Assembly (NCBI RefSeq): GCF_988242995.1
Contig: NZ_OZ547043.1
Reading direction: 5' to 3' (one strand)
DNA length: 64,000 nt
This document shows, piece after piece, positions 35,625 to 52,659 of the stretch; position 1 is the stretch's first letter, and the number at the start of each line of letters is the position of its first letter. Both the position numbers and the translations under genes were made by a program. Below the pieces are notes generated by a model. The model ran no database searches. It worked only from the letters and a program-made list of their open reading frames with translations, and was not told the origin of the DNA.

Positions 35625-36337
35625 TTGTGCACAGAAAACCCCCAGCTAGGCTGGGGGTTCCGGAAAGCTTTCAGCTTTGAGCCAGTTATTAAAACCCCTT
35701 TTGATTTGTTAAAACACTTTGCGGTCTGGCAACTGCAAGTGTCAAACAAGAAATCAAAAGGGGGTCCCAATGGGGAACGAAAAGAGCTTAGCGCACACCC
35801 GATGGAACTGTAAATATCACATAGTTTTTGCGCCAAAATACCGAAGACAGGTGTTCTACAGAGAGAAGCGTAGAGCAATAGGCAGTATTTTGAGAAAGCT
35901 GTGTGAGTGGAAAAGCGTACGGATTCTGGAAGCTGAATGCTGTGCAGATTATATCCATATGCTTGTGGAGATCCCGCCCAAAATGAGCGTATCCGGCTTT
36001 ATGGGATATCTGAAAGGGAAAAGCAGTCTGATGCTTTACGAGCAGTTTGGTGATTTGAAATTCAAATACAGGAACAGGGAGTTCTGGTGCAGAGGGTACT
36101 ACGTCGATACAGTGGGTAAGAACACGGCGAAGATACAGGATTACATAAAGCACCAGCTTGAAGAGGATAAAATGGGAGAGCAGTTATCGATTCCCTATCC
36201 GGGCAGCCCGTTTACGGGCCGTAAGTAACGAAGTTGGATGCAAATGTCAGATCGTGTGCGCCTGTTAGGGCGCGGCTGGTAAGAGAGCCTTATAGGCGCA
36301 TTTGAAAAACCTCCGGCTATGCCGGAGGATATTTATT
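35625..36337 (+). mobile_element. IS200-type insertion sequence, copy A
   Basis: About 711 bp near-identical to copy B; left-end hairpin CCCCCAGCTAGGCTGGGGG, right-end hairpin CCTCCGGCTATGCCGGAGG; contains tnpA. Confidence 0.9.
35770..36228 (+). CDS. tnpA: IS200/IS605 family Y1 (HUH) transposase TnpA
   Basis: 152 aa MGNEKSLAHTRWNCKYHIVFAPKYRRQVFY with HxH motif CADYIHMLVEIPP. Confidence 0.92.
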   Translation: MGNEKSLAHTRWNCKYHIVFAPKYRRQVFYREKRRAIGSILRKLCEWKSVRILEAECCADYIHMLVEIPPKMSVSGFMGYLKGKSSLMLYEQFGDLKFKYRNREFWCRGYYVDTVGKNTAKIQDYIKHQLEEDKMGEQLSIPYPGSPFTGRK

Positions 36338-42843: not shown

Positions 42844-43884
42844 CTAGGAGGCTTTGATTATATTAAGCAAATGTTTTCCAATCGTTTCAGACATCTTCGG
42901 AGGGACCGCATTTCCTATTTGACGAGCCCGAGATTGCAAAGAACCAATAAATTTATAATCCAAAGGAAATGTTTGTAGACACGCTGCTTCACGAACCGAT
43001 ATTGCTCGATTTTGTGTTGGATGTCCAAAACGTCCATTTGAATAGCTAATACAACGAGTTGTTAGTCCGCTGGCTGGTTTGTCCCAACTCAAACGTCCAT
43101 ATACGTCTGTATGCCCTTTATGGTTACGATGGCATTCTAAAATCAATTCATCTGGCCAAAATTCTCGACTTCCACCTTCAGGAGTGCATTTTATTCTACG
43201 TAAATTAAGCTCTGATAAGCGTGCAGCTTCATGATCAGGAATACTATTATGCTTTTCTCCTGCTTCTATCTTCGGTAAATTAGCGATCCAGTCCTTTACT
43301 GTTGAATAGGGAGTATTTCCAACCCCATGTGTAGGAGAAGGCAATGCGACATAAAAATCCTTGGATGCAATGAGCACTAATCTTTCTCGCGTCTGTGGTA
43401 CACCGTACCACGCAGCTGGCATTACTTTATAATCTACACTATATCCCTTTGATGAAAGCATTTCTAAAAACATCATGAATGTTCCTTCATTTTTGTTAAA
43501 CTTTTGCATTCCTGGCACGTTTTCAACAAAAATAAAATCAGGCATATAATGCTCTACAAAGCGACTGAATTCCTTTAATAGATCTAATCGTGGATCATCA
43601 TTTTTCTTATTTGAGTTTTGCTTAGAGTACGGTTGACAAGGCGCACATCCTGAAAAAAGAATGTAATCATTACGATGTTTTTTTACTAACTTGTTTATGG
43701 CATTGTTGTCGATTAACCTAATGTCCGAGTTAATAAAAGCAGCCTGCGGGAAATTTGCACGAAATGAACTGGCTGCATCAACGTCGAAATCGAGGCCAAA
43801 AACAATATCCATTCCAGCTTGATGGAAACCTTGGCTGGTTCCACCACAACCGGAAAAGAAGTCAAACACTTTGATTTTTTTCAT
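42844..43884 (-). CDS. DNA (cytosine-5)-methyltransferase
   Basis: 346 aa from MKKIKVFDFFSGCGG; motif I FSGCGG, motif IV GCAPCQPYS, motif VI ENVPGM, motif VIII QTRERLVLIA, motif X GNAVPP; RBS AGAGGGA. Confidence 0.9.
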   Translation of the reverse strand: MKKIKVFDFFSGCGGTSQGFHQAGMDIVFGLDFDVDAASSFRANFPQAAFINSDIRLIDNNAINKLVKKHRNDYILFSGCAPCQPYSKQNSNKKNDDPRLDLLKEFSRFVEHYMPDFIFVENVPGMQKFNKNEGTFMMFLEMLSSKGYSVDYKVMPAAWYGVPQTRERLVLIASKDFYVALPSPTHGVGNTPYSTVKDWIANLPKIEAGEKHNSIPDHEAARLSELNLRRIKCTPEGGSREFWPDELILECHRNHKGHTDVYGRLSWDKPASGLTTRCISYSNGRFGHPTQNRAISVREAACLQTFPLDYKFIGSLQSRARQIGNAVPPKMSETIGKHLLNIIKAS

Positions 43885-43907
43885 TTTTCCCTCTGCATCC
43901 AGAATCA

Positions 43908-45737
43908 CTACCTAATGATACCACGGTCAAGAGCCTGAGTAATTATTTTTCTTATTTTTATAAATTCAGGCAATTCATTTTTAAGTCTTGCGGTCATCAT
44001 TTGTTGGAGGCAAAAAATTTCCTCTGCATTTACTTCTTCTTTATCATACAGGTGTTGCGCTAATAATCTTATTTGATTCTTATACAGTTCTGGATCATTA
44101 GAACTCCAGGTCTGTGAATCAATTATTTCTTTTTCACTTGGCGTAATTGCCTTTTCAATGAGTAATTGTTCGGGAGTATCAAATGGTAAATACTTCACTT
44201 TATTGAATGCATACTCAAGCACTTGCCTTTTGAGTCTATTAGATTCTTGTTCATTTTTTTTGCCATTACTACCACTGGCATTGATAATTAACTCGCAACC
44301 ATAATATTTGCACATTGTATTAACTAAATCAGCATCAGCAATTTCACTAATTCTTACTGGTTTTATTTTTTTGTTTTTATCACCATCAAGTAAAAACAAA
44401 ATATCATTGCGTTCTACCACAGCGTAACTGGGAAGATGCTTGCTTAAAATGGTCTCCGAACCACCTGGTATATAACTTACACTAAATGATAAGCTTAATC
44501 TTTCATCATTTTTAATCGCTTTATCTATAATTGCTTTAGCTAATTTATCTTCTACAATTATTGTTTTCTTGTTAATATCATGCCCTAGCTCTATAAAAGC
44601 TTCATCCGGTGCTATATTTTGAACTATTTTAGCTGTTTCACTCTCTTCATCAAAAACAAATAATTTAATGGCATCTTTGGGAAGAGTGTTCACAATAACA
44701 GGAGAATGGGTTGATATTACCACTTGATGTTTTTTCTGCTCAACAATAGAGTACAGAACATCCATCATCCTTTTTTGTGCACCAGGGTGAAGTGAAACTT
44801 CTGGTTCGTCAAGAAGAATTAATGAATTAGGTTTGGCCGAATAAATATTGAGTATTAGTGAAACTATTGCAAATTCACCACTTCCAGCAAACGCTTCTGT
44901 ATAGTTCAACTTATCAGTTGAAAGTAAAGCGGTTCCTCCTCTGGTTCCAAATAACCGATGCTCAAGAAATTTAATGACTTTATATTTTTTCCCTAATATA
45001 AATGAGACGTGCTCAACTAGTTCTGGCGCCAAGGTTATATTTTTAACAATGGTTTCCGCCCCCCAGAGTCTTAAATTACTTAGCTTTTCATCAAAAGCTT
45101 TCTTTATATATTTAGATTTGCTTCTGATATAGTCTTGCTTTGTAATTAATACACCACTCTTCTTCTTTCTTAATTTAAAATCAGAGTGATACATACATCT
45201 ATCAAATGCACTTATTTCCGATCTGAAATCTAGGAAAACCAATCCCTTCTTGATTTTTTTCCATCTGGTTGCATTACTATTAGCACCCAGATCATCCGAA
45301 ATACTCTCCATGTTATCACCAACAGATGGTCGACTTGTTTCCCAATAATCGATTGTTTTCTTGGTAGCATTGATACGTGCTTGGAGTATTTCAACTAAAC
45401 GGCCATCAGCATTTTTATATCCATATATATATCTAGGTTTAAGAGAACTGCCATCAGCAAGTTTTAGGTCAGGAAACTCATCTGTTTCAGTTGTGAACCA
45501 ATAACGAGTTATATTTTTACCATGTGGGCAACCAAATAGCGCTTTGATAACAGAACTTTTATTAGTTCCATTTTTTCCTACTAAAGCCGTTATAGGGAAC
45601 TGAAAATCGATCCTTGCATTCTGCTCTATATTTTTAAAGTATGGAAAACGGATATGTTGTATGAATGGTTCAAATTCACCGTTTTTTAACGCGCACTGGA
45701 GTGTTCGAATTTTGCTCTTGTATGCGGAAGTGCTCAT
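43908..45737 (-). CDS. ABC-type ATPase fused to C-terminal Toprim-like domain (OLD-family-like nuclease candidate)
   Basis: 609 aa; Walker A LVGKNGTNKSS, Walker B/D-loop SLILLDEPEVSLHP, H-loop VISTHSPVI; C-terminal IIVEDKLAKA glutamate and FLLDGDKN DxD suggest Toprim; 23 bp upstream of MTase on same strand. Confidence 0.7.
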   Translation of the reverse strand: MSTSAYKSKIRTLQCALKNGEFEPFIQHIRFPYFKNIEQNARIDFQFPITALVGKNGTNKSSVIKALFGCPHGKNITRYWFTTETDEFPDLKLADGSSLKPRYIYGYKNADGRLVEILQARINATKKTIDYWETSRPSVGDNMESISDDLGANSNATRWKKIKKGLVFLDFRSEISAFDRCMYHSDFKLRKKKSGVLITKQDYIRSKSKYIKKAFDEKLSNLRLWGAETIVKNITLAPELVEHVSFILGKKYKVIKFLEHRLFGTRGGTALLSTDKLNYTEAFAGSGEFAIVSLILNIYSAKPNSLILLDEPEVSLHPGAQKRMMDVLYSIVEQKKHQVVISTHSPVIVNTLPKDAIKLFVFDEESETAKIVQNIAPDEAFIELGHDINKKTIIVEDKLAKAIIDKAIKNDERLSLSFSVSYIPGGSETILSKHLPSYAVVERNDILFLLDGDKNKKIKPVRISEIADADLVNTMCKYYGCELIINASGSNGKKNEQESNRLKRQVLEYAFNKVKYLPFDTPEQLLIEKAITPSEKEIIDSQTWSSNDPELYKNQIRLLAQHLYDKEEVNAEEIFCLQQMMTARLKNELPEFIKIRKIITQALDRGIIR

Positions 45738-45885
45738 TGTTTACTAAAGTCCATAATAGGCTATTAACAGGTTGAGGATGACATGATAACGATTTTTAAT
45801 GCAGATAAAAGAGGTTTGTTGGTTAGCACACAACAGAAAAAGTGACCTTACCGCTTGAACGAAAGGTAAGGGTAAGTAGGCTGTG

Positions 45886-46038
45886 ATGCAGCAAAAGACG
45901 ATGTTAATCGCCCTGATTGTCATCTGTATTACCGTCGTTGTGATGGCACTGGTAACAAGGAAAGACTTCTGCGAGGTACAAATCCGAACCGGTCAGACGG
46001 AGGTCGCTGTCTTCACAGCTTACGAACCTGAGGAGTGA
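45886..46038 (+). CDS. Hok/Gef-family type I toxin
   Basis: 50 aa MQQKTMLIALIVICITVVVMALVTRKDFCEVQIRTGQTEVAVFTAYEPEE; single TM then conserved C-terminal tail; 3' hairpin GCGAGGGAGAAATCCCTCGC at 46047-46066; below ORF-track size cutoff. Confidence 0.8.
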   Translation: MQQKTMLIALIVICITVVVMALVTRKDFCEVQIRTGQTEVAVFTAYEPEE

Positions 46039-46503: not shown

Positions 46504-47103
46504 ATGGCGCATATACAACTGGTCAAACAAACCTCTTCCGGATTACTTCTCCCGGCGACGCCGGAGAGTTGTGATTTTCTGCATCAAATCAAAATAGGCG
46601 AGTGGATACACGCAGACTTTAAGCGTGTGCGTAACTACGCATTCCACAAGCGTTTTTTCAAACTCCTGCAACTGGGATTCGATTACTGGACTCCGGTCGG
46701 TGGGGCGATCACGCCTCGCGAACGAGAACAGCTGTCTGGTTTCGTTGATTACCTGTGCGAATCAGTTGGTCGGGAACACACGCCAGCCCTGAGTGATGCC
46801 GCAGAGCAATATCTGAATACAGTTGCGACACGCAGAACCCGGGATACGGCATTGCTAAAGTCGTTTGAGGCTTTTCGCGAGTGGGTAACCATTCAGGCTG
46901 GATTTTACACCGAACATTTTTATCCGGACGGTAGCCGCGGGCGTCGGGCAAAATCTATCGCTTTTGCGAATATGGACGAAACCGAGTTTCAGCAGGTTTA
47001 TAAATCTGTTCTGAATGTGCTGTGGAACTGGATTCTGTTCCGTAAATTTTCCTCTCCGGAACAAGTCGAAAATGTGGCCGCGCAGCTGCTGGAGTTTGCG
47101 TAA
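46504..47103 (+). CDS. Phage nin-region protein, DUF1367 (YbcN-like)
   Basis: 199 aa; position between replication genes and Q. Confidence 0.6.
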   Translation: MAHIQLVKQTSSGLLLPATPESCDFLHQIKIGEWIHADFKRVRNYAFHKRFFKLLQLGFDYWTPVGGAITPREREQLSGFVDYLCESVGREHTPALSDAAEQYLNTVATRRTRDTALLKSFEAFREWVTIQAGFYTEHFYPDGSRGRRAKSIAFANMDETEFQQVYKSVLNVLWNWILFRKFSSPEQVENVAAQLLEFA

Positions 47104-47393
47104 TGGTGGATTTACGTAAAGCGGCGCGGGGGCAGATGTGCACCGTCAGAATTCCTGGCTACTGCAATCACAATCCCGAAACATCTGTGCTGGCGCATTA
47201 CAGGCTGGCGGGGACGTGCGGAACAGCGACAAAACCACACGATATGCAGGCAGCGATTGCCTGTAGCTCATGCCACGATTTAATCGACGGGCGGGTAAAA
47301 ACCAGCGATTACACCAAAGAAGAATTACGCCTGATGCATGCAGAAGGTGTTTTTCGCACACAAGAAATCTGGAGAAAGGAAGGTTATTTATGA
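47103..47393 (+). CDS. Phage nin-region Cys-rich protein, DUF1364 (YbcO-like)
   Basis: 96 aa with CxxC...CxxC spacing (CTVRIPGYC, CSSCHD). Confidence 0.6.
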   Translation: MVDLRKAARGQMCTVRIPGYCNHNPETSVLAHYRLAGTCGTATKPHDMQAAIACSSCHDLIDGRVKTSDYTKEELRLMHAEGVFRTQEIWRKEGYL

Positions 47394-47932
47394 TTTACCC
47401 AACAAATACAGGCAAAAGCGGGGAACACCTTCGTCTCACCACGCTGGAAAGTGTCTGGATTCAGGGAAAACTGCGCATGTGGGGGCGCTGGTCGTATATT
47501 GGCGGCGGTAAGACGGGAAATATGTTTAACCAGTTGCTGGCATCCAAAAAATTGACGAAAACAGCCGTCAATGAAGCCCTGCGCAGGATGAAAAAAGCGG
47601 GAATAGAGAAACCTGAGCTGGAAGCGTTTTTGCGAGAGATGATCAATGGCAAGCAAAAGACCTGGCTGGCGCATTGTACTGATGCAGAGGCGTTATGTAT
47701 TGATAGAGTCATAAGTGAGGTGCTGGCAGAGCATCCTGGATTGATTAGTGTCCTCCGGCAACGGTATGAAGGACGGGGGATGACTAAGCGCAAAATGGCT
47801 GAATTGCTAAATGATGCACATCCTGAGTGGTGTTTTAGCACATGCGAAAAGCGAATTGCTAATTGGTTGGCTGTTGCTGAGTATGCCCTATATATTCCCA
47901 TGCGAGAATTATTTGCTCAAAAAATAGCTTGA
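47390..47932 (+). CDS. Late-gene antiterminator Q-like protein
   Basis: 180 aa from MIYPTNTGKSGEHLRLTTLE; immediately upstream of lysis region. Confidence 0.6.
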   Translation: MIYPTNTGKSGEHLRLTTLESVWIQGKLRMWGRWSYIGGGKTGNMFNQLLASKKLTKTAVNEALRRMKKAGIEKPELEAFLREMINGKQKTWLAHCTDAEALCIDRVISEVLAEHPGLISVLRQRYEGRGMTKRKMAELLNDAHPEWCFSTCEKRIANWLAVAEYALYIPMRELFAQKIA

Positions 47933-48038
47933 TTTTTTACGCATAAACTGCTTCAATTCCGGTATGCTTCGCAAAGCTGTATCGCGAGGCGAACCAAGCG
48001 CATGAACTTTACCAGAACCCGCCATTGAGCGGGTTTTG

Positions 48039-48751
48039 TTGTGCACAGAAAACCCCCAGCTAGGCTGGGGGTTCCGGAAAGCTTTCAGCTTTGAGCCAGT
48101 TATTAAAACCCCTTTTGATTTGTTAAAACACTTTGCGGTCTGGCAACTGCAAGTGTCAAACAAGAAATCAAAAGGGGGTCCCAATGGGGAACGAAAAGAG
48201 CTTAGCGCACACCCGATGGAACTGTAAATATCACATAGTTTTTGCGCCAAAATACCGAAGACAGGTGTTCTACAGAGAGAAGCGTAGAGCAATAGGCAGT
48301 ATTTTGAGAAAGCTGTGTGAGTGGAAAAGCGTACGGATTCTGGAAGCTGAATGCTGTGCAGATTATATCCATATGCTTGTGGAGATCCCGCCCAAAATGA
48401 GCGTATCCGGCTTTATGGGATATCTGAAAGGGAAAAGCAGTCTGATGCTTTACGAGCAGTTTGGTGATTTGAAATTCAAATACAGGAACAGGGAGTTCTG
48501 GTGCAGAGGGTACTACGTCGATACAGTGGGTAAGAACACGGCGAAGATACAGGATTACATAAAGCACCAGCTTGAAGAGGATAAAATGGGAGAGCAGTTA
48601 TCGATTCCCTATCCGGGCAGCCCGTTTACGGGCCGTAAGTAACGAAGTTGGATGCAAATGTCAGATCGTGTGCGCCTGTTAGGGCGCGGCTGGTAAGAGA
48701 GCCTTATAGGCGCATTTGAAAAACCTCCGGCTATGCCGGAGGATATTTATT
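48039..48751 (+). mobile_element. IS200-type insertion sequence, copy B
   Basis: Near-identical to copy A, same orientation, same terminal hairpins. Confidence 0.9.
48184..48642 (+). CDS. tnpA: IS200/IS605 family Y1 transposase TnpA
   Basis: Identical 152 aa product to copy A. Confidence 0.92.
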   Translation: MGNEKSLAHTRWNCKYHIVFAPKYRRQVFYREKRRAIGSILRKLCEWKSVRILEAECCADYIHMLVEIPPKMSVSGFMGYLKGKSSLMLYEQFGDLKFKYRNREFWCRGYYVDTVGKNTAKIQDYIKHQLEEDKMGEQLSIPYPGSPFTGRK

Positions 48752-48864
48752 GTTTCTGGTACTGGCGAACCTGATGTTTCATTTCTGGAGCGCGATTCCT
48801 GGCGGAATACCTAGAATCGAGACATTCTGGTAAAATTGTTTTCAGTACAGGATGTGGAGGTGAG

Positions 48865-49434
48865 ATGAGAGAACTACCTAAAGATTATTTTTTAGGAGTA
48901 GATGATGAGCTCGTCGATTATCTTGAAAAACAAGGGGAAGAGACGATACGAGAGATTCATCTTTCTAACAAAACCAATGTTGAGAATGGATACAAACTTC
49001 TGAACATTCAGATTGTTGGAATTGGTTCATCTTTTTTATTGCTGACACAGAAAACTAATTTCGATTTTCTCACCGCCGGAATTACCACATTTACATTACT
49101 ATGGACATGGTGCGCCATTTACTTGGTATGTACTGGTTTATCTGTGAAGGTTAGGGGCCTGATCAATGCCCCTCCTGATCATCTATATCATGAAAAATAT
49201 AAGGATATGGAGCCCTCGAGCTTTAAAATATTCGCTGATGCAGGATATTTAGGACCTGATAAGTTATTGCCGCTTATACGAAGGTATCGCCTTGTTGACT
49301 TGAGTGATACAGCAAGAGAGTTACTGTTGGAAAATGAGAAAATCCGCACGAGTCTCGATAAAGCAAGGATGTATACCATCCTTGCTCCGGTAGCGGCGAT
49401 GTTTATCTCGGCTGTTTTTTTATATGTTCAATGA
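48865..49434 (+). CDS. Hypothetical membrane protein (cargo between Q and holin)
   Basis: 189 aa with hydrophobic segments (GIGSSFLLLTQ, TFTLLWTWCAIYLVCTGL, ILAPVAAMFISAVFLYV); AT-rich. Confidence 0.5.
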   Translation: MRELPKDYFLGVDDELVDYLEKQGEETIREIHLSNKTNVENGYKLLNIQIVGIGSSFLLLTQKTNFDFLTAGITTFTLLWTWCAIYLVCTGLSVKVRGLINAPPDHLYHEKYKDMEPSSFKIFADAGYLGPDKLLPLIRRYRLVDLSDTARELLLENEKIRTSLDKARMYTILAPVAAMFISAVFLYVQ

Positions 49435-49659
49435 CTGAGTCGGCAGAATCTCCAACAAAAACACGACGTGTAGCAAAGTCTGTAGTACTTTGTGTTGGAG
49501 TTGGTTTTGGTGCCACGGGGTGCTGAGGTTTATTTTCACCTTGTGGTTTGTTTTTTTCAGACATAAAAATCCTCTTTGTTTGAATTGTTACTTTTGGCGA
49601 TTTAACGATATCAAACACGAGTATATACCGCCAGAAGCTTAATCTGGCACTCCATCTGA

Positions 49660-49685
49660 CCCCGGCATGTCCCGGGGCTTTTTCG
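49660..49685 (+). terminator. Hairpin plus T-run upstream of holin (possible tR'-like terminator)
   Basis: CCCCGG-CATGTC-CCGGGG followed by CTTTTT. Confidence 0.4.
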
Positions 49686-49781: not shown

Positions 49782-50123
49782 ATGAAAATGCACAATGCCC
49801 CTCATTCCTGGCCTGACTTACTGGAACTCTTACAAAGTTGGTGGCGTGGAGATACGCCGCTGGGTGCAGTGGTTATGTCAATTATTATGGCTGGTTTGCG
49901 CATTGCCTATTTTGGCGGTGGCGGCGGCTGGAAACGAAAAACGCTTGAGATTCTGCTTTGTGGTGCTCTGACGCTGACCTTTGCATCCGCGCTTGAGTAT
50001 GTCGGATGGCCTAAATCACTTTCTGTTGCCATTGGTGGTGGGGTGGGGCTGATTGGTGTTGATGCTATTCGTAGTGCGGCAATGAGGGTCATCGGTAACA
50101 AGTTCGGTGCCCATAAGGAGTAA
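49782..50123 (+). CDS. Class I holin with dual-start motif
   Basis: 113 aa from MKMHNAPHS (Met-Lys-Met like lambda S107/S105); hydrophobic segments; upstream of endolysin. Confidence 0.75.
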   Translation: MKMHNAPHSWPDLLELLQSWWRGDTPLGAVVMSIIMAGLRIAYFGGGGGWKRKTLEILLCGALTLTFASALEYVGWPKSLSVAIGGGVGLIGVDAIRSAAMRVIGNKFGAHKE

Positions 50124-51064: not shown

Positions 51065-51201
51065 AATCTTAACTACAATATGATTCATTTTGATGATTGT
51101 TTCATAAGGAACAGTGAAGTAAGATCTAAGAGGAGTTAAATTTTATACAGTATAATCATAATATTGCAGCAAGGTGGTTATAATTGAAAGAATATTTAGA
51201 T

Positions 51202-52659
51202 ATGAATACATCTCATGTAAGAGTTGTTACTCATATGTGTGGGTTCCTGGTTTGGCTCTATAGTCTTTCAATGTTGCCACCAATGGTTGTAGCATTGTTT
51301 TATAAAGAAAAAAGCCTGTTTGTTTTCTTTATAACTTTCGTTATATTTTTTTGCATTGGTGGCGGAGCGTGGTATACAACTAAGAAATCTGGCATTCAAT
51401 TACGTACCCGTGATGGGTTTATTATAATTGTAATGTTTTGGATTTTGTTTTCTGTTATTAGTGCATTCCCTTTATGGATTGACTCAGAACTTAATTTAAC
51501 GTTCATTGATGCTCTGTTTGAAGGGGTTTCTGGAATAACAACAACAGGAGCAACTGTAATTGATGATGTTAGTTCATTACCTCGGGCATATTTGTACTAT
51601 CGGTCACAGTTAAATTTTATAGGTGGTTTAGGAGTTATTGTTCTGGCGGTTGCTGTATTGCCATTATTGGGTATTGGTGGTGCAAAGCTTTATCAGTCAG
51701 AAATGCCGGGGCCATTTAAGGATGACAAACTCACTCCCCGCCTGGCCGATACGTCACGGACACTGTGGATAACTTATTCTTTATTAGGTATTGCTTGTAT
51801 TGTCTGTTATAGACTTGCAGGAATGCCTTTGTTTGATGCTATTTGTCACGGGATTTCCACAGTTTCGCTTGGTGGTTTCTCAACTCATAGCGAGAGTATC
51901 GGATATTTTAATAACTATTTGGTTGAGCTGGTGGCTGGTTCTTTTTCCCTGCTATCGGCTTTCAACTTCACTCTTTGGTATATTGTTATTAGCAGGAAAA
52001 CGATAAAACCTTTAATCAGAGATATTGAACTTCGTTTCTTTCTGTTAATAGCCTTAGGTGTGATCATTGTTACCTCTTTCCAGGTCTGGCATATAGGTAT
52101 GTATGACTTGCATGGAAGTTTTATTCATTCGTTTTTTCTTGCCAGCTCCATGCTCACTGATAATGGTTTAGCTACGCAGGATTATGCAAGTTGGCCCACG
52201 CACACGATAGTGTTTTTGCTGTTGTCAAGTTTCTTTGGGGGATGTATAGGTTCAACTTGTGGTGGAATTAAGTCACTTCGATTTCTTATACTTTTCAAAC
52301 AAAGCAAACACGAGATAAATCAGCTTTCTCATCCCAGAGCGTTGTTGAGTGTAAATGTAGGAGGGAAGATAGTTACAGATCGTGTAATGAGGTCTGTATG
52401 GAGTTTCTTTTTTCTTTATACTCTCTTCACGGTGTTTTTTATACTGGTGTTAAATGGTATGGGATATGATTTTCTTACATCATTTGCAACAGTGGCTGCA
52501 TGCATTAATAATATGGGATTAGGTTTTGGGGCTACTGCATCGTCATTCGGAGTGCTTAATGACATTGCAAAATGTTTAATGTGCATAGCTATGATTCTTG
52601 GTCGCCTTGAAATTTATCCTGTTATTATATTGTTTTCAGGTTTTTTTTGGCGCTCCTAA
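51202..52659 (+). CDS. trkG: Potassium uptake protein TrkG (TrkH paralogue, prophage-borne)
   Basis: 485 aa from MNTSHVRVVTHMCGFLVWLYS; AT-rich codon usage. Confidence 0.92.
   Translation: MNTSHVRVVTHMCGFLVWLYSLSMLPPMVVALFYKEKSLFVFFITFVIFFCIGGGAWYTTKKSGIQLRTRDGFIIIVMFWILFSVISAFPLWIDSELNLTFIDALFEGVSGITTTGATVIDDVSSLPRAYLYYRSQLNFIGGLGVIVLAVAVLPLLGIGGAKLYQSEMPGPFKDDKLTPRLADTSRTLWITYSLLGIACIVCYRLAGMPLFDAICHGISTVSLGGFSTHSESIGYFNNYLVELVAGSFSLLSAFNFTLWYIVISRKTIKPLIRDIELRFFLLIALGVIIVTSFQVWHIGMYDLHGSFIHSFFLASSMLTDNGLATQDYASWPTHTIVFLLLSSFFGGCIGSTCGGIKSLRFLILFKQSKHEINQLSHPRALLSVNVGGKIVTDRVMRSVWSFFFLYTLFTVFFILVLNGMGYDFLTSFATVAACINNMGLGFGATASSFGVLNDIAKCLMCIAMILGRLEIYPVIILFSGFFWRS

Follow-up and report, generated by a model that had tools for sequence, protein, structure and literature searches.

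The interval between the late antiterminator gene Q and the holin gene S is a classical site of phage cargo genes, such as stx in Stx phages. Pycsar is a cCMP/cUMP anti-phage system. Its membrane effector, PycTM, serves systems that work by abortive infection (PMC13069673), as also reported by Tal et al. (2021). SLATT and CBASS 2TM domains are predicted pore formers of conflict systems based on nucleotides or reverse transcriptases; the proteins are predicted membrane-acting killers, some of which are carried by prophages or phage-inducible chromosomal islands (PICIs) (bioRxiv 10.64898/2026.04.29.721553). We analysed a stretch of 64,000 nucleotides (nt) from contig NZ_OZ547043.1 of assembly GCF_988242995.1, hereafter the window, in which an open reading frame (ORF) of 189 amino acids (aa) starts with ATG and occupies positions 48865–49434 on the plus strand between Q and the holin gene of a prophage. 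An earlier reading made from the DNA letters alone (the sequence-only reading) had described this ORF as a lone AT-rich gene that encodes several hydrophobic segments and belongs to no assignable family. We find that it forms a prophage cargo unit together with a convergent 53-aa gene. A role of the 189-aa protein in abortive infection or exclusion is plausible and gains some support from matches of family members to PycTM and CBASS 2TM profiles. The reading that we favour, with a confidence somewhat short of even, is that of a prophage membrane effector that would be held in check by a small regulator and would act in abortive infection or exclusion.

The ORF was recovered at exactly the coordinates of the sequence-only reading and is AT-rich as described there, with a GC content of 38.9% (40.7% in the partner gene described below), whereas the window as a whole has 47.4%, Q 47% and the lysis genes 50.7%. 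Its product corresponds to the RefSeq entry WP_001208722.1 ('hypothetical protein'). The claim that it belongs to no family held for Pfam (cut-off E ≤ 0.1), NCBIfam and PADLOC, in which our searches of the ORF returned no family at all, and failed for PHROG, in which phrog_11870 of unknown function matched it from end to end with E = 6e-108. Our literature search by topic, by the accessions WP_001208722, WP_224482377 and A0A086V4V2, and in the DefensePredictor supplements retrieved no description of the 189-aa family.

A search of 5.8 billion proteins clustered at 90% identity yielded 104 clusters, nearly all of exactly 189 aa, with identities down to 42% and with hosts from the genera Escherichia, Klebsiella, Citrobacter, Salmonella, Enterobacter, Morganella, Providencia, Proteus, Serratia, Yersinia, Pantoea and Sodalis. 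When 1.84 billion representatives were searched with a profile, 105 proteins were hit, including a few spurious repeat proteins, and distant relatives of 160–200 aa were found in Pasteurellaceae, Bordetella, Achromobacter, Burkholderia, Ralstonia, Oxalobacter and Vitreoscilla. The family holds together: BLAST at E < 1e-8 connects each of the 65 diverse members that we compared with the others, 53 of the 65 show a direct hit to the window protein, and E. coli-type proteins were recovered at E of about 1e-40 with a profile of the P0127 subgroup. We rejected the apparent domain fusions P0164 and P0198 as repeat-protein artefacts, and the longer family members proved to have mis-called starts, so that no real domain fusion was left. 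Among complete E. coli genomes, 257 of 5426 gave a match, and in 222 of 5426 no less than 80% of the region is present with an identity of ≥99%; clinical isolates are among the E. coli strains with the gene.

All 41 distinct homologues taken from their loci are exactly 189 aa long, and 22 columns are invariant in an alignment of 42 sequences. Because the differences between 34 distinct loci are weighted towards the third codon position (0.34, 0.25 and 0.61 for positions 1, 2 and 3, respectively) and the length is constant at 189 aa, this is not a chance ORF, and the pattern confirms positions 48865–49434 as a genuine, conserved gene for a predicted membrane protein. The idea that the ORF is a non-functional remnant or spurious can draw on the frameshifted copies that occur in some lineages; it is effectively refuted by the strict length, the invariant columns, the third-position substitutions and the many near-identical copies in complete E. 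coli genomes.

The several hydrophobic segments noted earlier correspond to three charge-free stretches at residues 46–62, 70–92 and 169–189. An AlphaFold model built on the family alignment (mean predicted local distance difference test, pLDDT, of 82) shows long helices at 14–62, 68–92 and 134–188 with short helices between the second and the third, and is that of a three-helix membrane protein, predicted to lie in the inner membrane. The first long helix is hydrophobic in its last part (46–62), which contains the conserved motif IVGIGSSF, and the third is hydrophobic at its end (169–189); a 19-residue Kyte-Doolittle window exceeded 1.6 for the second and third stretches only and not for 46–62. 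The charge distribution predicts a cytoplasmic N-terminus and a cytoplasmic middle region with 14 Lys/Arg residues, with the C-terminus outside. The protein therefore would have a cytoplasmic N-terminus, a hairpin of two transmembrane helices (TM1 and TM2), a cytoplasmic helical region and a C-terminal TM3. No signal peptide or secreted domain was detected in the largely cytoplasm-facing protein, and a profile search of PDB sequences with the family returned only noise (GpsB, E = 0.05).

The sequence-only reading treated the gene as a single ORF and missed a convergent partner on the minus strand at 49403–49564, whose 3′ end overlaps that of the 189-aa gene by 32 nt. The partner encodes a hydrophilic, Pro/Gln-rich protein of 53 aa (MSEKNKPQ...DFATRRVFVGDSAD...KKQPR; full sequence MSEKNKPQGENKPQHPVAPKPTPTQSTTDFATRRVFVGDSADSVIEHIKKQPR) that belongs to PHROG 14506. 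An automatic scan of 41 distinct Enterobacterales loci detected a partner ORF of 46–56 aa in 40; L080 is equivocal, with only a longer and divergent minus-strand ORF. The overlap between the two genes ranges from 0 to 53 nt across loci. Shared features of the partner proteins are an MS-x-NKP start, a Pro/Gln-rich middle, a basic tail and the motif DF-x3-R-(V/M)-(F/L)-(V/I)-G-(D/N)-S-A-(D/E). The partner also adjoins five remote homologues of the 189-aa protein with 24–30% identity, namely those of a metagenomic phage (42 aa), a second metagenomic contig (49 aa), Pasteurella multocida (41 aa, with VFIGDSVD), Bordetella avium and Burkholderia cenocepacia (43 aa). Apart from L080, every locus with usable sequence yielded a partner. 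Outside the overlap, its codon-position differences of 0.42, 0.32 and 0.58 follow a coding pattern, and its pairwise identities correlate with those of the 189-aa protein (r = 0.82, 561 pairs). Because the partner gene is conserved alongside the 189-aa gene and co-varies with it, the conserved unit is a two-gene convergent cassette and not a lone ORF.

We characterized the pair further by AlphaFold prediction of a fusion in which the 189-aa protein was joined to the partner through a (G4S)5 linker, using 30 loci as a paired alignment. Most of the partner remained below a pLDDT of 50, and its conserved motif block reached about 77 and formed a short strand (FVG). A new strand appeared in the 189-aa protein at residues 96–98 (VRG), just past TM2 on the cytoplasmic side, where R97 is nearly invariant and where the confidence of the surrounding loop rose from 60 in the protein alone to 71 in the fusion. 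These are the sole two strands of the fusion model. Indirectly, the prediction hints that the partner motif may dock next to TM2.

Natural alleles of the cassette include sizeable lineages in which the 189-aa gene is frameshifted and the partner is intact, leaving products of 128 aa in Escherichia and 120 aa in Klebsiella; the frameshift alleles that we collected (L105–L109) come from E. coli, E. marmotae and K. pneumoniae. Such alleles are compatible with a toxin-like 189-aa protein and are no proof of it. In one further E. coli allele, a 1-nt deletion at about 49414, within the overlap, rewrites both C-termini and leaves the 189-aa gene open.

These alleles bear on the idea that the cassette is a toxin-antitoxin or addiction module that stabilises the prophage, with a membrane toxin, a convergent gene that acts as labile antitoxin and/or antisense RNA, and no dedicated anti-phage role. 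The obligate convergence with its 0–53 nt overlap would yield complementary transcripts, broken large genes next to intact partners are common, and a Hok/Gef toxin and other toxin-antitoxin genes occur in comparable prophage slots. The layout also resembles txpA/RatA and bsrG/SR4, which are likewise prophage-borne and combine a membrane-targeted product with a convergent partner transcript that overlaps at the 3′ end. However, the toxins of those systems are peptides of less than 60 aa, whereas the protein of the cassette has 189 aa, far more than a type I toxin, and three transmembrane helices, and its partner has a clear protein-coding signature and encodes a conserved protein rather than an RNA alone. 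The natural allele with an altered partner C-terminus, in which the large gene nevertheless stays open, also argues against an antitoxin, and we consider such a module unlikely.

The evidence for an effector comes from the profile matches of the family, for which we scanned the 65 diverse members against PADLOC. The PycTM model PDLC02364 was matched by five of the 65 members with a best E of 1.5e-8, CBASS '2TM' effector models by three (4e-5 and 0.0042) and a CARF-TM model by one. The PycTM match of P0127 covers residues 26–128, which comprise the N-terminal helix and both transmembrane helices, and one family member matched the Pfam PycTM family at E = 0.016. Two Pasteurellaceae clusters carry the UniRef label 'SLATT domain-containing', and the SLATT-type core of an N-terminal helix and a two-helix hairpin is present in our model (helices 14–62 and 68–92). 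Weak Pfam hits of remote members to 8xMP, DUF6249 and YLATT were treated as noise from transmembrane hairpins; a literature search on 8xMP gave nothing relevant. Searches for PycTM/SLATT relatives with family sub-alignments returned only family members, which carried no Pfam label.

Like PycTM, the family consists of small stand-alone membrane proteins of about 160–200 aa in which a cytoplasmic helix at the N-terminus precedes a transmembrane hairpin. In contrast to PycTM, the family has an additional C-terminal transmembrane helix and an obligatory convergent small partner, neither of which is described for Pycsar, and no PycC cyclase adjoins the cassette in the window or in the loci examined. 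SLATT and CBASS 2TM proteins share the helix and 2TM core, and three family members hit the CBASS 2TM models as described above; unlike these systems, the cassette has no SMODS, SLOG, CD-NTase or reverse transcriptase gene nearby in the loci examined, and its matches to SLATT_1 and SLATT_3 are below threshold. For these reasons of profile and gene context, the 189-aa protein is treated here as probably working like an effector of the PycTM/SLATT type and is not filed in those families.

The Q-to-holin slot named in the sequence-only reading was borne out. Its left border is a Q-type late antiterminator at 47390–47932 on the plus strand (Pfam DUF1133, E = 8.6e-109; Phage_antitermQ, E = 2.2e-6) and its right border a lambda-S-family holin at 49782–50123 on the plus strand (Phage_holin_3_1, E = 8e-28), and the content of the slot is polymorphic. 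Among 36 non-redundant loci, at least 22 have a Q gene directly upstream, which belongs to one of four Pfam families (Antiterm, Phage_antitermQ, DUF1133 and Phage_antiter_Q), the other upstream neighbours being methylase, KilA-N, Rha, ParE-like toxin and tail chaperone genes; downstream, holins of six families and several types of endolysin were found in the same set. Remote homologues occupy other slots: one member is convergent with a cI-S24 operon, and others lie in an early region with Bro-N/KilA-N, RecT and SSB genes, before the terminase next to Dam and BrnTA, or among the genes for the baseplate in an E217-like prophage. For the early-region member, a copy in Pasteurella multocida (L096, positions 1–2977) has its cassette beside GmrSD-like, HEPN and N6-methylase genes, in a setting like that of a defence island. 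In a sister E. coli prophage with an identical holin, the 230 bp upstream of the holin are 98% identical and the slot holds different genes, namely one for an ORF6N protein and two that converge on each other and encode 76 and 92 aa; this prophage also carries a diverged Q allele.

With four Q families, six holin families and several types of slot combined with it, the cassette behaves as an exchangeable accessory module, and this speaks against co-adaptation to one lysis system. Overall, slot polymorphism and distinct base composition make it a prophage cargo unit (moron). Like the lambdoid morons and exclusion genes (lambda rexAB, sieB, HK97 gp15 and bor/lom), it is an insert between conserved phage genes that differs from them in composition, has promoter-like and terminator elements and may be autonomous, and like RexA/RexB it is a two-component set with a membrane protein. 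It differs from all of them in having no sequence relationship to them, and from the rex operon in that the genes of the latter are co-directional and those of the cassette converge.

The slot also invites the explanation that the cassette is host-adaptation or virulence cargo unrelated to conflict between phages, as the sequence-only reading had considered in its virulence moron. The Q-holin slot classically carries cargo of this kind, with stx as the example, and the gene is present in the clinical isolates mentioned above. Against this, the family is always phage-borne in hosts of unrelated lifestyles, including prophages of enteric, plant-associated, insect-symbiont, Pasteurellaceae, Bordetella and Burkholderia hosts, and the protein mostly faces the cytoplasm, with neither a signal peptide nor a secreted domain; we regard this explanation as very improbable.

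A sigma-70 promoter match found by consensus scan lies at the end of Q (47867–47896, plus strand; TTGGCT-18-TATATT), to which we assign a pR′-like function only by analogy with lambda. It is followed by an intrinsic terminator at 48013–48042 on the plus strand, with the stem CAGAACCCGC/GCGGGTTTTG and a T-tract, which folds with −19.7 kcal/mol (z = −3.3) and is flagged in the phage copy that lacks the insertion sequence IS200 (L001); a comparable hairpin with a T-run after Q is visible in most related loci. Together, the promoter-like site and the hairpin resemble lambda pR′/tR′. A putative promoter of the 189-aa gene itself is indicated by the −10-like hexamer TAAAAT (GGTAAAAT) at 48831–48836 on the plus strand, 28 nt upstream of the ATG; in 36 of 41 distinct loci, the ATG is preceded at 35–43 nt by a TA(A/G)(A/T)AT hexamer, despite divergent flanks and whatever the Q family. 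For the Pasteurella partner gene, a near-consensus sigma-70 promoter was read by eye. Between cassette and holin, a second intrinsic terminator (CCCCGG-loop-CCGGGG followed by CTTTTT) is located at 49660–49685 on the plus strand. Terminators thus flank the cassette on both sides in the window and in the IS200-free phage, and imperfect equivalents consisting of a hairpin and a T-run can be seen by eye in many other loci.

Just 5′ of the ribosome-binding site of the partner gene, a 39-nt inverted-repeat box at 49578–49616 (minus strand GTTTGATATCGTTAAATCGCCAAAAGTAACAATTCAAAC) is better conserved than coding sequence. When its hairpin was specified by hand, 87% of cells were paired compared with 30–47% in slid controls, compensatory CG/UA changes occurred at one pair, and the pairing was 87.0% on one strand and 85.7% on the other; RNAalifold returned no consensus structure for the box. 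A second conserved hairpin (GCCAGA-loop-TCTGGC, 49630–49648) keeps its stem with variable loops across loci and is predicted in the folds of both strands. The box and the second hairpin (49578–49648) are also present, at 98% identity, in the cassette-less prophage (L103, 3500–3600), in which they precede the leftward 92-aa gene that is itself convergent with the 76-aa gene. Convergent gene pairs appear to be swapped in this slot, with the leftward control region in common. An Rfam scan found no RNA family in the cassette. The arrangement in the window suggests two autonomous, opposed transcription units bracketed by terminators, a layout that would allow expression in the lysogen without expression of the holin.

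The same arrangement bears on a possible role in the lytic cycle of the phage itself, in which the 189-aa gene would be the first gene of the Q-dependent late transcript and would tune lysis timing, by depolarising the membrane and so triggering the holin or as an antiholin, or would block superinfection during lytic growth. In most Enterobacterales loci the cassette does lie directly between Q/tR′ and the holin, where Q-modified polymerase would read through it and late transcription would oppose and silence the partner gene. Yet the six unrelated holin families and four Q families among its neighbours argue against co-adaptation, remote members are far from lysis genes, the sister prophage with the identical holin has no cassette, and in the window a terminator separates the cassette from the holin. 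Moreover, no Pfam holin or antiholin family matched the 189-aa protein, which is longer than the about 70–150 aa of holins and has large cytoplasmic parts, and the real holin begins at 49782. We therefore judge a role in lysis to be distinctly unlikely.

The analysis thus shows a real and conserved gene that is paired with the partner and placed in modular fashion, together with a predicted fold and matches of the family to effector profiles. The mechanism that we propose from them starts from a self-contained prophage cargo cassette of the 189-aa gene and the convergent 53-aa gene, of which the large protein would be a distant relative of the membrane-disrupting effectors of cyclic-nucleotide defence (PycTM, CBASS 2TM and SLATT-like proteins). 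In the lysogen, each gene would be transcribed from a promoter of its own, within the stretch bounded by the tR′-like terminator and the terminator that precedes the holin. The small, cytoplasmic and disordered partner would bind the loop just after TM2 through its RVFVGDSA motif and, while bound, would hold the effector in an inactive state; convergence of the genes makes the two transcripts complementary, which would add antisense cross-control. Infection by a competing phage, or loss of the partner, may then allow the effector to permeabilise or depolarise the membrane, with abortive infection or exclusion as the outcome.

Several results count against this mechanism. The window protein itself matched no PycTM (PF18967, PDLC02363/02364; E ≤ 1), 2TM or SLATT profile, and when we scanned ten members singly for the source of the E of 1.5e-8, P0127 alone matched, and weakly. 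The PycTM/2TM link comes from remote members that make up a minority of the family, and compositional matches are a common hazard with transmembrane proteins. The SLATT models NCBIfam SLATT_1 (E = 0.1; 12.5 bits compared with a cut-off of 41) and Pfam SLATT_3 (E = 0.13) were reached below cut-off and by remote members only, and fold searches with the 189-aa model returned generic long-helix bundles and nothing more specific. The surroundings of the gene in the window, like those in more than 40 related and remote loci, contained neither the cyclase PycC nor another signal-generating enzyme. The putative docking of the partner is read from the rise in pLDDT and the joint appearance of two strands. 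Furthermore, a standard sigma-70 scan detected no promoter for either cassette gene, the promoters given above being consensus-level predictions, and of the 41 loci in a strict scan for plus-strand terminators, only 14 had one downstream and only 15 had one upstream. Finally, in Enterobacterales the cassette has a near-constant place directly 5′ of the holin, as might be expected instead if it took part in lysis by the phage itself.

Superinfection exclusion without killing is a further alternative, in which a membrane protein expressed in the lysogen would block the entry of phage genomes at the inner membrane, as P22 SieA, T4 Imm and HK97 gp15 do, with the small protein as cofactor or regulator. 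It would fit a prophage inner-membrane protein that resides in cargo slots, once within tail genes as HK97 gp15 does, that is laid out like an independent transcription unit and that has a broad host range and yet is always phage-borne. However, neither Pfam nor PHROG gave a match to SieB, Imm, RexB or other exclusion families, the profile matches that do exist favour killing effectors, and a co-evolving cytoplasmic partner with antisense geometry is atypical of known entry blockers. Exclusion of this type thus appears rather unlikely, though it carries some weight.

Returning to the membrane effector checked by a small regulator, we would extend it, tentatively and as a doubtful proposition, to a pore former of PycTM/SLATT-like type that is gated directly by a disordered, Pro-rich mini-protein and needs no nucleotide messenger. 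Convergent transcripts and the conserved 5′ hairpin box would set the ratio of the two products, and the cassette would represent an undescribed class of prophage two-component immunity that can be swapped among the cargo slots of temperate phages of Gamma- and Betaproteobacteria.

The cassette is found in about 4% of complete E. coli genomes and also in prophages of Klebsiella, Citrobacter, Salmonella, Proteus, Serratia, Yersinia, Pasteurella, Bordetella and Burkholderia, and if it is a defence or exclusion module, it would be a compact and widespread two-gene addition to the anti-phage repertoire. It would then also imply that effectors of the PycTM/SLATT type can be controlled by a protein partner rather than by a signalling nucleotide, and the convergent layout with the conserved hairpin box would offer a tractable model of dual control by antisense RNA and protein. 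The finding further marks the lambdoid Q-holin interval as a place at which alternative convergent gene pairs seem to be swapped. If the cassette does not serve defence, it still contains a well-defined orphan family that deserves a Pfam entry.

The sequence-only reading had placed the ORF right after copy B of IS200. This copy does lie between Q and the ORF, outside the cassette, at 48043–48751 on the plus strand (709 bp; tnpA at 48184–48642, Y1_Tnp with E = 5e-37), and it is 100% identical to a second copy at 35629–36337. Its 5′ untranslated region matches the Rfam family STnc490 at 48051–48174 with 144.6 bits, the sole match of the Rfam scan. The element sits exactly in the T-tract of the tR′-like terminator, with an apparent 2-bp duplication (GT/TG), and the insertion separates the late promoter from the late genes by additional hairpins, those of the IS200 termini. 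Because IS200 is absent from phage vB_EcoS-666R9 and its relatives, and because none of the complete E. coli genomes in our collection shares the junction, the insertion is recent and irrelevant to the cassette, so that the position stands as a rare event and not as part of the unit.

The host element is a Rac-like lambdoid prophage. Upstream of Q, its gene order comprises a DUF1367 protein gene (46504–47103) and a DUF1364/YbcO gene (47103–47393), and the holin is followed by genes for a lysozyme and Rz/Rz1. The holin begins with Met-Lys-Met (49782–49790), a dual-start motif (MKM) that is classical for the holin and antiholin of lambda S. After the lysis genes, an AT-rich gene for a TrkH-family potassium transporter (51184–52659, plus strand; trkG in RefSeq) is followed by a gene that is annotated as ParB-like in a related phage record, and trkG followed by a ParB-like gene is the hallmark of the Rac prophage. 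By this analogy, the window appears to contain a Rac-type prophage that keeps the late region that K-12 Rac lost.

In the early-right region of the prophage, an AT-rich gene pair of about 32–36% GC occupies 42844–45737 on the minus strand. It consists of a gene for a 354-aa protein with C5 DNA-methyltransferase motifs (FSGCGG and PCQ), directly followed by a gene for a 609-aa AAA/OLD-like ATPase (PADLOC HEC-04, E = 1.5e-34; 'ATP-dependent nuclease' in RefSeq), and the pair is a candidate defence or restriction-like module. Next to the ATPase gene, at 45883–46038 on the plus strand, an ORF encodes a 51-aa membrane toxin of the Hok/Gef family and is annotated as such in the RefSeq record of strain FORC 064.

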